Part shown: positions 12,502 to 33,925 of the stretch, piece by piece | How the letters are laid out: each line of letters begins with the position of its first letter | How positions within the stretch are numbered: the stretch's first letter is position 1 | NCBI GenBank assembly: GCA_030535235.1 | Contig: JAUNCL010000001.1 | Span: 13,518-77,517, forward strand | Reading direction: 5' to 3' | Length of the DNA stretch: 64,000 nt | DNA from: Bacillota bacterium | GTDB taxonomy: Bacteria; Bacillota; Clostridia; Oscillospirales; Oscillospiraceae | Notes under the pieces: model-generated | Databases searched by the model: none | Told to the model about the DNA's origin: nothing | Seen by the model: only the letters and a program-made list of their open reading frames with translations | Position numbers and translations under genes: made by a program

Positions 12502-12718
12502 TGAATATTCCGTCCCGCGGAGCACTGCGAATCCGTTAAAACGGAAACCGCTCCTCAACTCCCCTATCATGCAGCTATGCGTTCTGCGCAAATACGTTAT
12601 AGGTGCATTCCTCTAACTCGTAAAACGCGCCAATCGAAAACAGAACGTCGCCAAAATCCATCAAAATCTGTGCTTTTCTATCCTTTTTTCATGGGAGGAA
12701 TGCGATATTGCGGCACAT
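12502..12718. repeat. Copy 1 of a diverged direct repeat (partner at 33687-33925)
   Basis: Shared blocks TGAATATTCCGTCCCGCGG, CTCCCCTATCATGCAGCT.TGCG.TCTGCGCAAATACGTTATAGG.GCATTCCT and GGAATGC.ATATTGCGGCACAT, in the same orientation. Confidence 0.9.
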
Positions 12719-12966
12719 GCCACCCCAAGAAGCATGGTCATTCAGCACCACGGTAGGCGAACCGCAAGTGCTCAAGTACTTGCGCCACAGTCGTTTCCAA
12801 GGCGGCAAATTGTTGACGCTGTATGATTTGAGGACTTTTACAGCAATTGTGAACCCGACACAAGCTGTCACCAATCAACATTTTTAAAGCCGCACAGAGA
12901 AGATCATCACCCGGTTCGGAAACATCAGTCAAAAACCACATGCTGCTTTCAAACCTATGCCTTTGC

Positions 12967-14430
12967 TTACCACGTCAGGTTGCAGCACAGTACAAGACTG
13001 AAAATGGCGTACAGCCCAGTCAGTCCAACCACGCCTTTCCTGAACAGGCACTTCCTGTTTTGCGGTATTTCCTCCCACCATTTCGCCAGAAATACCGCAC
13101 CGATCAGGGCAGTTGGCACAACATACCGAAAATCCATGGTACAGCCAAAGGGATATTGGATGTTGAAATTAATATAGGACCCCATCAACACCAGCCAGAA
13201 GCAGATCAAGACTGTCCATTGAGCCGTGCGATGCCGGATCAACACAAGAGCCATTGCCGCAAGGCTGAGCAGGATCAGCAGCAGATTGATAAGAATCAGC
13301 AGACCCGGGATAACTTTCCCCATGTTAAACGAAAATTCGCCAAATAATGATCCCTTTAACAAGTAGGACCATACATTGTAATCTTCAAATGGATGGTCGT
13401 AAATCTCAAAGTTTTTGATCAGCCCGAATCGTTCCCAAAGGCTATAGCCTCCACAATAAACCTCCGATTCCTCTGATATCCGCAGCACGTAATTGAACGG
13501 CTGTTGGAACAGGATTAGGTTCCGAATGGGATACCACAGCCCCAGCGGGAAGGCGATCAGGCCAAAGACGACGAATTGCCGGATAATCGGCAGCCCATTC
13601 TTTTCCCGGAGGCGGCGGTACAGGACCAGAATCATCACGCAGCCGGTGACCAGGGCAAACACGCCGACAGAGATCTTCGTCATCATACCCAGGCCAAAGC
13701 AGAGAGCCAGCTTCACCAGCGCTCCCCATTCCTGCCGCTTATACCACCGGAGCGTGTAGTACAGAATGGCCGTCATGAACATGACCGCCAACGAATCGTT
13801 GTTCACACGACCGGCCAGGAGATAGTGGTTGGGCAGGAAGGCCGCCAGGCTAACAGCGATCAATGTCGCCTCGTCGCTCAGGCGCAACTGCCGGCACAGA
13901 TTGCGGGCATAGAACAACGTCACAATAGACGCAGCACAGGATACGGTCTTAGCTGCTTCCAGCAACTGTCCGGGATCGGAAAAGCCGCTCAGCGCCCGGT
14001 AGCAAGCCATCGCAATGGCAGAAAGCGCATGGAAAAGCGGGGGGTGATAGAACTGGTAACTGTTGTTGGGCGGCAGCTCTCCCTGCAGCAGATGCAGAAT
14101 ATAGGCCACGTGGCCGTTGCTGTCCAAAGAGCACTTCCCCAAATCATGACCCCGCACGTATGCCGGGGTATAAAGCATGTATCCCACACGCATCAGAATC
14201 CCCAGCACGAGAATCAGCCACAGGAAGATCTCGCTTCGGTCCAGTTCCGGATGCGTCAGCATGATCCAGACCGCGGCGCCAACCATGATCAATACCCCAA
14301 CCTGCATGAGCAGTTGGATCGTCAGTGTGTGGGTTGCCAAAACAGTGGTGAATACTGCGTAAAAAGCGATCAGCATCAGCAGGCAGGAGCCTGCCGCTGC
14401 AATTCTTTCAACGTTTTCTTGCTTCTTCAT
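12967..14430 (-). CDS. GT-C fold integral membrane glycosyltransferase (GT39/ArnT/PMT-like)
   Basis: Multiple TM segments, [31 protein letters not shown]. Confidence 0.75.
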
Positions 14431-15970
14431 GCTGTACCTCTTCGTGATACTCCGATCCGGTATTCACGTTCCACACGCTCTGCTTGTCATAAGAACCGGA
14501 GACGATGGACTGCACCGCCGCGAAGGCCGTCTCCATGGAGTGGTCCATGTTGTTGTAGCGGTGCTGGCCGTTGCGGCCCACACAGAACAGGTTTTGGATG
14601 CCGTCCAGATACTCCCGCAGCTCACCCAGCCGTTCGTAAGTATCAAAGTAGGCCGGATAGGCCTTCCTGACCCGCTCCCTGTGCCAGTCCAGCACCTTGC
14701 TGTTTTCGTCCAGCACGCCGATCTGCTTTAGTTCTCTGACGCTCAGTTCTCCGCATTCCTGTTCGGAGAGGTTCCAGAAATCGTCACCCTCCTCACAGAA
14801 GAATTCCACGCCCAGCCAGACGGTGTCTTCCGGCTTTTCCACCAGATAGGGGGACCAGTTATTGAACACCTGGATGCGGCCCATCTTCACGCCGGTGTCC
14901 TGCACGTAGATCCAGCAATCCGGAATGATGTTGTTCATCGTCAGCAGCTTCGTCTCGTTCTGCAGAGCCAGCCGGTCCACCAGAATACCCATGGTGACGA
15001 AATCCCGGTAGGGCAGACCCTCGGCGACATCCCGAATCTCCTGGGGCACATCGTCCATTCCCGACACCAGGTCTTTCAGCGGCATGGAAGAGATCACGAT
15101 CTCGCCGTCGTAGAGCCGGCCGCCGGCTTCCACGCCCACCGCTTTTCCATTTTCCACCCGAATCTTGTCCACGCAGGCGTGGCGCACCAGCTTTCCGCCC
15201 ATGCGCTCTACCTCTGCCGCAGTGGTCTCCCACAGCTGACCGGGGCCGAACTTGGGATAGCGGAAGGATTCGATCAGCGATGTCTCCACATGGCCGGTGT
15301 CCTTGCTGCCGAAGGTCTTCCGAAACACATCCGCAATCAAAGCGCGGATAGACAGGCCCTTGACCCGCTGGGCGCCCCAGTCCGGAGCAATAGCGCTGGG
15401 ATGCCGGCCCCACAGCTTCTCCGTGTAGCCCTCAAAGAACATGGAGTAGAGCACTTTTCCGAACCGGTTGATGTAAAAGTCCTCCAGAGAGCGTTCTTCC
15501 CGCTTGAATATAGTCCCCCACAGGTAACTGCAACCTGCCCGTACGGTGGTGACAAGTCCCATATTGATGAAGGTCTGGGGCTTCATGGACAGCGGATAAT
15601 CAAAAAAATGCCGCTGATAGTAGATGCGGGATACGCGGTTTCGCATCAGCATCACCCGGTCCTCTTTGTCCGGATCCGGGCCGTTTTCTGCCACTGCGCA
15701 GGGACGGCCCAAGACCTTGTCATCGTAAGACGGTGAACCCTGATCGGGCATCATGTCTTCCCACCACTTGCAGACCTGGGGATCCTTTGAGAAGAATCGG
15801 TGGCCGCCGATATCCATGCGGTTGCCGCCGTGGCAGACCGTGCGGGAGATACCACCCACTGTTCCACTCTCCTCCAGGACCGTCACATCATAGTCCTCGC
15901 CGCTGCGCAGCAGTTCATAAGCTGCGGTCAGACCAGCCGGACCTGCGCCGATAATCACAACTTTTTTCAT
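14408..15970 (-). CDS. FAD-dependent oxidoreductase of the Glf/HemY superfamily (UDP-sugar mutase-like)
   Basis: IIGAGPAGL Rossmann motif, [39 protein letters not shown]. Confidence 0.8.
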
Positions 15971-16002
15971 AGTTCTCTCTCCCGAATTCTATATTGGCCC
16001 GC

Positions 16003-33592: not shown

Positions 33593-33624
33593 AAAACGAC
33601 CCCCTACAAAAAATTATTTGCTAT

Positions 33625-33653
33625 AGTATAGCATAGTTCGCCCTTCTGTGCAA
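33625..33653 (-). promoter_or_regulatory. sigmaA promoter of the wcaJ-like gene
   Basis: TTGCAC-N14-TGC-TATACT (17-bp spacer, extended -10). Confidence 0.65.
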
Positions 33654-33686
33654 AATGATTGTATCCAGTGCGCCGGTATAGGGCGC

Positions 33687-33925
33687 TGAATATTCCGTCC
33701 CGCGGGTATCGCGAATCCAGTAAAACAGAAACTGCTGTTACGGAGAGATAGAAACCAGCTTTCAGCTCCCCTATCATGCAGCTGTGCGCTCTGCGCAAAT
33801 ACGTTATAGGAGCATTCCTGCAACTCCAAAAGCGCCCCGATTGAAAAAAGAACGCCGCCAAAACTTTTAAAATTTCTGCCTTTTCGCTCCATTTTGCGTG
33901 GGGGGAATGCTATATTGCGGCACAT
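33687..33925. repeat. Copy 2 of the diverged direct repeat (partner at 12502-12718)
   Basis: Same conserved blocks as copy 1, plus about 20 extra bp near 33730-33750. Confidence 0.9.

Follow-up and report, generated by a model that had tools for sequence, protein, structure and literature searches.

Islands of the SCC type grow by tandem accretion and carry repeated integration-site sequences between their modules. Another family of integrated DNA is the gene-intervening elements excised by large serine recombinases (LSRs) in spore-forming Firmicutes; the published accounts drawn on here describe skin in sigK, SPbeta in spsM and gin in gerE (PMC4191935, PMC5025042, PMC5595907, PMC5499854). 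The 64,000-nucleotide stretch of Oscillospiraceae DNA analyzed here (the window) contains a pair of direct repeats, A (12502-12718) and B (33687-33925), which a first-pass annotation had placed at the two ends of a glycan cassette. Each copy is composed of three parts: the left end of an insertion sequence from the IS21 family, a spacer of about 85 nt, and the attL-type arm of an LSR attachment site. The two copies are probably non-functional composite scars of island assembly, built from two kinds of mobile DNA.

The repeat pair and its IS21-family part

The repeats, the interval between them, the adjacent promoters and the recombinase genes are located in the window as follows.

12435..12463, minus strand: host promoter of a dppA-like gene, TTGACA-17-TATAAT, a 12/12 sigma-70 match; not part of the repeat, with 38 nt between it and the IS terminus of A
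12502..12605, plus strand: copy A, part 1, IS21-family left end; 79% identical to a third copy on contig C46 of the same genome
12606..12691, plus strand: copy A, part 2, spacer of ~85 nt; 55-80% identical to the B spacer per 20-column block
12692..12718, plus strand: copy A, part 3, attL-type half-site, crossover TG plus GGAGGAATGCGATATTGCGGCAC(AT); 21/23 match to the attL of a split deacetylase gene, and also a match to the attL of relative G024
12719..33686, no strand: interval between the copies, with glycan genes by Pfam; GC 45-60% against a genome mean of 60.5%
33625..33654, minus strand: promoter of a wcaJ-like initiating sugar transferase gene, 9/12 with an extended -10; not part of the repeat, with 32-34 nt between it and the IS terminus of B
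33687..33812, plus strand: copy B, part 1, IS21-family left end; identity with the C46 copy is 78% across 125 columns, and with A it is 87%
33813..33898, plus strand: copy B, part 2, spacer of ~85 nt, counterpart of the A spacer
33899..33925, plus strand: copy B, part 3, attL-type half-site, TG plus GGGGGAATGCTATATTGCGGCAC(AT); 23/23 identical to the attL arm at C14:43342-43364
55397..55948, plus strand: small serine recombinase of the resolvase/invertase type, 183 aa (Pfam PF00239, E=9e-45), adjoining the LSR gene
56270..57874, plus strand: LSR of 534 aa with Resolvase, Recombinase and Zn_ribbon_recom domains (Pfam)

The direct repeat of about 220-240 bp reported by the first-pass annotation is real, with sharp edges and unrelated flanks. 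A and B are identical at 175 of 216 ungapped columns (81%) and differ by a single 23-nt indel; BLAST aligns them at 76% over 241 columns (E=4e-43), and a repeat search returns an ungapped core of 175 nt at 79% identity. The longest run without a mismatch is ~21-24 nt. Homology starts exactly at TGAATATT and ends exactly at GCGGCACAT, and the best-conserved columns are the first 20 (19/19) and the last 20 (19/20), against 55-80% in the interior. Similarity between the flanks, over 100-250 nt on each side, does not score above shuffled sequence (p=0.3-0.95), so that the flanks give no sign of a segmental duplication. The genome holds two full copies of the unit. BLAST and a sequence model found it in none of 39 same-genus and 150 same-family genomes, and an exact-pattern scan of viral contigs gave no match to the core block.

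Part 1, which spans ~105-127 nt, follows the layout of an IS21-family left end. In A it consists of the terminus TGAATATTCCG.., a single copy of the GGAAACC repeat, the -10 box TATCAT, the CCTAT..ATAGG hairpin and a ribosome-binding site in degenerate form, AGGTG, with no transposase gene after it; the second GGAAACC repeat has been lost through a 23-nt deletion. B retains both GAAAC repeats together with the fold-back hairpin, the ribosome-binding site AGGAG and a promoter, TAGAAA-17-TATCAT, at 33749-33777. The third copy of the first ~127 nt (C46:19368-19496), 78-79% identical to A and B, runs directly into an IstA fragment (NF033546, E=2e-22), and its own insertion site is an IS256 transposase gene. 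Full IS21 elements are found in relatives G191, G192, G251, G097 and G126, which encode an IstA of 515-523 aa and an IstB; they open with TGAATAT.. and proceed through the repeats, TATAAT and a hairpin to GGAGG and ATG. The terminus of the G191 element equals that of the C46 copy over the first 15 nt and agrees with A and B at 14/15. Among 150 family genomes, a sequence model of A, B and the C46 copy detected IS21 left ends only (G310, G426).

The hairpin pairs the -10 region with the stretch immediately 5′ of the ribosome-binding site. In other insertion sequences, a leader hairpin of such a layout blocks translation of read-through transcripts, and the hairpin in the intact IS21 elements of the relatives has this layout.

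Part 1 of A and part 1 of B are IS21 relics and not elements, because the window lacks istA and istB: tblastn with four IstA/IstB pairs gave no match in the window and matched C46 only. The IS21 transposase genes of the genome are located at C46:31601-33409. A right IS21 inverted repeat was not found in A or B, their end-to-end inverted similarity is non-significant, and inspection of the flanks revealed no target-site duplication beside the IS end. An exact-pattern scan of a public collection of genome contigs for the IS terminus returned a single chance match, inside a gene. The earlier proposal that A and B are twin remnants of one mobile-element end fits the first half of the unit, the IS21-family left end.

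The A spacer opens with GCATTCC, the complement of GGAATGC in part 3. Searches for the source of the spacer gave no significant match to the IstA DNA of the C46 copy, to the 5′ or 3′ half of the deacetylase (as DNA and as protein), or to either end of the G000, G024 and G028 elements. In one frame the B spacer bears a weak likeness to the N-terminal end of the deacetylase (..FSLHFAWG.. vs ..CSLTFDAAWG.., p=0.04), and A has no such likeness.

A minus-strand promoter stands beside each copy, as the annotation had reported, with 12/12 matching positions at 38 nt from A and 9/12 at 32-34 nt from B. The distal half of the dppA-like promoter region, 12440-12474, is conserved in G015, the closest relative. 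The near-equal distance to the -35 box and the shared orientation at both copies are a point against reading the unit as a scar; a rough estimate puts their chance occurrence at 2-5%.

Attachment half-sites and a split deacetylase gene

The last ~27 nt of A and B are, by sequence comparison, a serine-recombinase attachment half-site, whose arm corresponds to the P′ arm of an LSR site. The reference for this comparison is a gene for a polysaccharide deacetylase, uninterrupted in G010 (..GACGCCGCC TGGGGCAACGAGGAC..) and split in the present genome, with the 5′ half plus the arm at C14:43342-43372 and the inverted arm plus the 3′ half at C6:78005-78040. Both junctions share TGGGGGAA. Reconstruction of attP gives a dyad of 40 nt with TG at its center. 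The 17-nt arm motif occurs in exact form at only four places in the genome, namely A, B and the C14 and C6 junctions, and one further match with one mismatch lies inside a kinase gene.

An attL is recognized here by its place at the break points of a gene that other genomes have in one piece, together with a dyad attP. The motif has both at the C14 and C6:78 kb junctions, and A and B are not such junctions. Their left arm is the IS21 relic plus the spacer instead of half of a target gene, and they carry one base more between the TG and the AATGC arm than the true attL. The arm of A also has an A within its G-run, and this change and the extra base both argue against present activity. The true attL, comprising the deacetylase 5′ half and the arm, is located on another contig, C14, and is followed there by a hybrid kinase gene and not by island DNA; therefore, either the island has been rearranged or the assembly is incomplete. 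Contig C19 was rejected as an assembly link, its matches with the G024 and G028 elements being a pyruvate-phosphate-dikinase-like cargo gene.

In seven relatives an element occupies the same position of the deacetylase gene: G024 (22.4 kb), G028 (10.3 kb), G004, G034, G643 (3.7 kb), G226 (5.2 kb) and G297. Dyad arms are present in G297, G643 and G024 and weak in G226 and G028. LSR homologs with 56-72% identity are encoded beside the split deacetylase in G024, G028, G643, G226 and G297, the five of the seven occupied relatives that this search covered. Because of this co-occurrence across genomes, the LSR at 56270-57874 is the presumed enzyme for the A and B half-sites; its gene is part of the same island, 22 kb downstream of B and 44 kb downstream of A. 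Outside this setting, a search of 300 family genomes for the att motif with one mismatch gave scattered single matches in coding DNA without a common context, and an exact-pattern scan of metagenome contigs gave a single chance match in a tilS-like gene.

The island, its proposed history and the alternatives

Between 12 and ~55 kb the GC content drops from ~61-67% to 40-60% (mean ~52%). Homology to G015 ends at window position 12474, 27 nt from A, and returns near 62.4 kb. The low-GC, non-syntenic island so delimited is ~52 kb in length, with A at its left edge and B internal; its right edge is a matching attR by the deacetylase 3′ half, 0.5 kb beyond the end of the window. A single contig carries A, B and attR, in the correct relative orientation.

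The Pfam content of the interval between the copies comprises a PMT_2-type glycosyltransferase (dolichyl-phosphate-mannose-protein mannosyltransferase family), an FAD oxidoreductase and two GtrA proteins; GT87-like, GT2 and GT8 glycosyltransferases, PqqD, NTP_transf_5 and an ABC-2 exporter; and GT1 together with WG-repeat, Wzy_C and Bac_transf proteins. The search for DNA homologs covered 12719-18000 in 39 same-genus genomes and 26000-33686 in four relatives, and found none in either segment. The earlier description of a glycan cassette bracketed by the repeats is correct in that glycan genes fill the interval, but these genes continue past B to ~43.7 kb. The pair does not make a composite transposon, as each flanking unit is a directly oriented left end that lacks a transposase.

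In the proposed history, the IS21 relic would have arisen through deletion of istA and istB from the exact start codon onward. A and B have the form expected of attL-type left junctions of LSR integrative elements, A at the left edge of the island and B a second, internal left junction; if B is such a junction, the 21-kb glycan interval is therefore one module of a composite island. We infer that a single ancestral scar gave rise to both A and B, because they agree in the point of IS truncation, in the spacer and in the extra base, that their tandem placement arose while the island was being built from modules, and that both are now inert. The first-pass idea of a recombination anchor survives in a weaker sense, in which att half-sites mark the boundaries of island modules. 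Nothing points to a conserved anchor for glycan swapping: the unit occurs in no relative searched, the glycan locus extends past B, and the half-sites carry the extra base.

Some readings leave the repeats or the element active. There is a small chance that the true attL, A and B belong to a multi-junction modular LSR element. The LSR, acting with a directionality factor, could then excise alternative segments, one of 31 kb starting at B and one of 52 kb starting at A, or the island could have grown through module capture at a decoy site in the IS21 relic; either way, the glycan genes would be switched or shuffled site-specifically. Slightly less probable is that A and B serve as present-day recombination anchors, varying the glycan module and the cell surface through homologous recombination of A with B or through LSR-plus-RDF excision with attR. 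Direct repeats around glycan genes suit this role, as do attL-type sites that share a contig with attR and are correctly oriented to it, and the presence of an intact gene for the recombinase. However, an overall identity of 81% with a longest match of ~21-24 nt makes a poor RecA substrate, the additional base of the half-site is expected to hamper the recombinase, the deacetylase gene would stay unrestored after excision at either copy, and no relative has the unit or an alternative cassette between units. A MITE-like origin, in which the ~220-240-nt unit is a non-autonomous element moved whole to two intergenic sites by an IS21 transposase acting in trans, is equally doubtful. It would account for two sharp edges in unrelated contexts and for end columns better conserved than the inside, and the transposase genes exist on C46. 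Against it, the two ends show no significant inverted similarity to each other (p=0.13, 0.45), a target-site duplication is absent, there are just two copies and none in the same-genus and same-family genomes, and the right end is a recombinase arm that is found alone elsewhere.

The least probable reading by some distance makes the unit a structured RNA that is conserved, or else a protein-binding regulatory element, upstream of two promoters. Both pairings listed by the first-pass annotation, CCTAT (12563-12567) with ATAGG (12599-12603) and GCATTCC with GGAATGC, do occur in both copies and in the predicted fold of A, and one pair of the latter has both of its bases changed, being U-G in A and A-U in B. 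The unit also stands 32-38 nt upstream of the -35 box in the same orientation at both copies, and its conservation is blocky. However, Rfam has no match in the whole window, A and B fold no better than shuffled sequences on either strand (z -1.4 to +0.8), and two copies yield no covariation statistics. All conserved blocks are accounted for by IS21 or recombinase function, and the unit is missing in relatives whose dppA promoter is conserved. The synonymous pattern once seen in a minus frame is not borne out either: each of the six frames has 4-8 synonymous vs 18-21 non-synonymous codon differences. Every frame contains stop codons in one or both copies, the two minus-strand ORFs differ in start and stop, and the ORFs of A and B have no Pfam or NCBIfam match. 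A small gene or gene remnant was rejected on the absence of a coding signature in any frame and of a protein-family match. With A and B read as inert scars, an unexplained repeat is reduced to two ordinary parts, and it is not one to pursue as a new RNA or gene.

Comparison with known systems

A and B share with the IS21 family the terminus, the GGAAACC repeats, the internal promoter, the leader hairpin and the ribosome-binding site before istA. They differ from its members in having no istA, istB, right end or target duplication, and in being left-end relics fused to foreign sequence.

As in SCC-type islands, several direct copies of a recombinase site are found at module boundaries within one island, and the cargo differs from module to module. 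The recombinase here is of another subfamily, the repeat unit holds an IS21 relic, and the internal sites are attL-type instead of regenerated attB-type.

At the level of the target gene the parallel is with skin, SPbeta and gin, as far as the accounts cited above describe them. In both settings a coding gene is disrupted, at an invariant position, by an element that bears a recombinase (3.7 to >20 kb here), with dyad att arms, a short shared core and an intact gene in relatives. The target here differs, being a polysaccharide-deacetylase (NodB-type) gene, as does the arrangement of the site: the left junction is on another contig, and A and B are extra, decoy-like left junctions within or at the edge of the island. 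This LSR element family interrupts one deacetylase gene at a fixed position in the present genus and two others of the same family, where empty and occupied sites can be compared, and it provides a set of related recombinases with natural pairs of attB and attP. Its member in this genome is a ~52-kb island with cell-surface glycan genes, and the split deacetylase may be another gene rebuilt by excision, as are sigK, spsM and gerE.

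Composition of the repeat pair

The repeat at window positions 12502-12718 (copy A) and 33687-33925 (copy B) is explained as a mobile-DNA scar present in duplicate, each copy joining an insertion-sequence end, a spacer of ~85 nt and a recombinase half-site. The first-pass annotation had described A and B as diverged direct repeats, and they are real: 175 of 216 ungapped columns are identical (81%), with one 23-nt indel (MAFFT), and the copies match each other at E=4e-43 in a BLAST search against the whole genome. A repeat search within the window returned them as its sole long repeat. 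Homology begins exactly at TGAATATT and ends at GCGGCACAT, and over 100-250 nt on each side the flanks of A and B are no more alike than shuffled sequence. Conservation is blocky. Identity is 19/19 over the opening 20 columns, 38/40 over columns 81-120 and 19/20 over the closing 20; the remaining columns are 55-80% identical.

The first half of each copy is an insertion-sequence left end of the IS21 family. Contig C46 has a partial third copy (19368-19496, 78-79% identical over ~125 columns), which opens with the same TGAATATTCCG terminus, sits within an IS256/Mutator transposase gene (PF00872, E=3e-34) and leads immediately into an IstA fragment (NF033546 positions 56-172, E=2e-22). In five genomes of the order there are full-length relatives, which encode an IstA of 515-523 aa and IstB. 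All have left ends built alike: TGAATA(T/C).. is followed by several short repeats, TATAAT, an inverted repeat, GGAGG and the IstA start codon, the inverted repeat pairing the -10 region with the bases immediately 5' of GGAGG. The first 15 nt of the IS21 terminus in genome G191 are those of the C46 copy; A and B deviate at position 12. A model built purely from the sequences of A, B and the C46 copy, run on 150 genomes of the family, matched nothing but further IS21 left ends, located in G310 and G426.

This identity accounts for three features of the repeat. The CCTAT..ATAGG pairing pointed out earlier is present and forms the IS leader's fold-back hairpin, the promoter TAGAAA-17-TATCAT at 33749-33777 is the IS's own, and the 23-nt difference is one of two GAAAC repeats lost in A. 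No istA or istB remnants were found near A or B. There is nothing unusual about the IS part of the repeat: it is a relic from a known family.

The region C46:18900-19900 consists of nested mobile-element fragments, in which the IS21 left end cuts the IS256/Mutator transposase gene at about residue 135; the IstA of this copy lacks its first ~50 codons and ends early, after ~150 codons. The same contig has a second IS21, near-complete, at C46:31601-33409. In G310, contig C21:55381-55600 holds a solo left-end relic cut ten codons into istA, which keeps the terminus, repeats, promoter, hairpin and ribosome-binding site and is a second example of an A/B-type relic.

The recombinase half-site and the split deacetylase gene

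The last ~27 nt of each copy are a predicted serine-recombinase attachment half-site. Its right-end motif has exact matches at four places in the genome.

Exact sites of GGAATGCNATATTGCGG
Window, right end of copy A
Window, right end of copy B
C14:43345-43361
C6:78015-78031, inverted, 0.5 kb beyond the window end

A single polysaccharide-deacetylase gene is split in two, its halves lying next to the C14 and C6 sites. The 5' half on C14 holds the first 79 codons, to ..FDAAWGN, and the 3' half on C6, the contig of the window, holds the rest of the gene, from WGNEDTQ.. on (spans C14:43342-43593 and C6:78005-78400). Both junctions have TGGGGGAA in common, and in G010, where the gene is intact and the site empty, the sequence reads ..GACGCCGCC TGGGGCAACGAGGAC.. 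across the site. Joined together, the two element-side arms (the half-site flanks of the crossover TG) make a 40-nt near-perfect dyad centred on TG, a putative attP, or element's own site, of the form expected for a large serine recombinase. The arm of B is identical to the C14 arm at 23/23 positions and that of A at 21/23; past the arms, no homology to the C14 junction was found in A or B.

Recombinase genes of the window
55397-55948: small resolvase/invertase-type serine recombinase gene, directly upstream of the large recombinase gene
56270-57874: large serine recombinase gene with Resolvase, Recombinase and Zn_ribbon_recom domains

Among 400 genomes of the order, the nearest homologues of the large recombinase (56-63% identical) are found in G297, G643 and G226, and all adjoin a deacetylase gene interrupted at one and the same codon; the G643 element is 3.7 kb long and that of G226 5.2 kb. 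Within the genus the deacetylase site is filled in G024 (22.4 kb) and G028 (10.3 kb), whose recombinases are 72% identical to that of the window in translated comparison, and also in G004 and G034. Each genome has its own arm pair around a constant TGGGG. In G297 and this genome the two arms are clearly inverted repeats of one another, a relation that is weaker in G643, G226 and G028; the left arm of G024 has 2 mismatches to the A/B motif over 19 positions. The G024 and G028 elements carry a gene 72-76% identical (translated comparison) to one on contig C19 of this genome. By its N-terminus the gene looks like one for pyruvate phosphate dikinase, and an enzyme of the housekeeping type is not cargo one would expect in these elements.

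Layout of the island

A, B and attR, the right element-target junction, lie on one contig and one strand, A and B oriented as left junctions 51.8 kb and 30.6 kb from attR, respectively. The extent from A to attR agrees with two independent island limits, a drop in GC and the loss of homology to G015, the closest relative. GC at ~12-55 kb is 40-60% (mean ~52%), down from 61-67% (genome mean 60.5%). Homology to G015, 93-96% in the dpp operon, ends at window 12474, 27 nt from A, and returns near window 62.4 kb.

Gene content of the island
A-B interval: glycosyltransferases, GtrA proteins, ABC-2 exporter, Wzy_C protein, initiating transferase
Past B, up to 43.7 kb: envelope/glycan genes (glf, two epimerases, SLH protein)
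After 43.7 kb: relaxase fragment, AAA-DUF4143 gene, then recombinases

Of the repeat-bracketed glycan cassette proposed from the sequence, the repeats and the glycan genes between them stand, but the cassette is not neatly bracketed, since glycan genes continue beyond B. B marks a boundary within a larger composite island. The true attL (left junction; deacetylase 5' half plus arm) lies on C14 and is followed 190 nt further on by a hybrid kinase gene, so either the island has been rearranged or the 51-contig draft hides the linkage.

Several other features were observed in and around the island. The relaxase (MobA/VirD2) fragment at 45958-46485 and the AAA/DUF4143 ATPase at 50389-51696 are consistent with a mobile origin. 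Window 19300-23100, in the A-B interval, resembles a modified-peptide cluster more than a polysaccharide operon: a small Ser-rich ORF region with GC-rich tandem repeats (19327-19462) is accompanied there by a PqqD-like protein (19966-20235), a GT8 glycosyltransferase, an NTP_transf_5 protein and an ABC exporter. The ~225-nt leader of the dppA-like gene (12201-12435, minus strand) contains an intrinsic-terminator-like hairpin and T-run (12311-12287) that may be an attenuator; no known riboswitch or T-box was found there with Rfam. On G015 contig C49:8558-11565 the dpp operon is decaying via several internal deletions, and what remains of its dppA promoter has been joined to a 4-hydroxybutyrate/GABA fermentation cluster; in this genome that cluster is on a different contig, C49.

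Probable history of the scar, and related elements

A and B carry the IS21 relic and the spacer in place of the target-gene half. The spacer gave no significant match to istA, either deacetylase half or the element ends; in B it bears a weak peptide resemblance to the deacetylase N-terminus (p=0.04), absent in A. The GCATTCC/GGAATGC complement reported by the first-pass annotation does exist and pairs the spacer start with the recombinase arm. A match to GCATTCC is also present at the core-proximal end of the opposite (P) arm; at 8 nt it is not significant. Relative to the working attL, A and B each have one additional base separating the arm from the crossover TG. This shared base, the shared IS truncation point and the shared spacer suggest that A and B go back to one ancestral scar and are probably inactive. 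The two copies are ~19% diverged, yet the closest species, which differs by about 5% in shared genes, has neither; from this we infer that no recent duplication produced them in this lineage and that they probably came in with separately acquired modules.

Other readings of the pair were weighed against this history. A present-day recombination anchor is possible in principle, given the correct orientation of A and B and an intact recombinase gene; the extra base in both half-sites and the low identity of the copies speak against it, however, as do relatives that carry neither the unit nor alternative cassettes. A MITE-like mobile unit is unlikely, as its ends are not inverted, a target-site duplication is absent and only two copies exist. 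Neither a structured RNA nor a small coding gene gained support. The two minus-strand promoters marked beside the repeat are present, at 12463-12435 (12/12 match; dppA-like gene) and 33654-33625 (wcaJ-like gene), and the copies lie at a similar distance from the downstream -35 box, for which the simplest account is insertions surviving only in the short neutral gap between stop codon and promoter.

With A and B read as a doubled scar, the repeat itself is of less interest than the family of recombinase elements and the natural attachment sites that come with it. The target gene in this genome is a deacetylase, which was not found as such a target in the portions of the literature searched, although this is no proof of novelty. 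Skin, SPbeta and gin are known gene-intervening integrative elements of Firmicutes (PMC4191935, PMC5025042, PMC5595907, PMC5499854), and the recombinase elements found here are of the same class.
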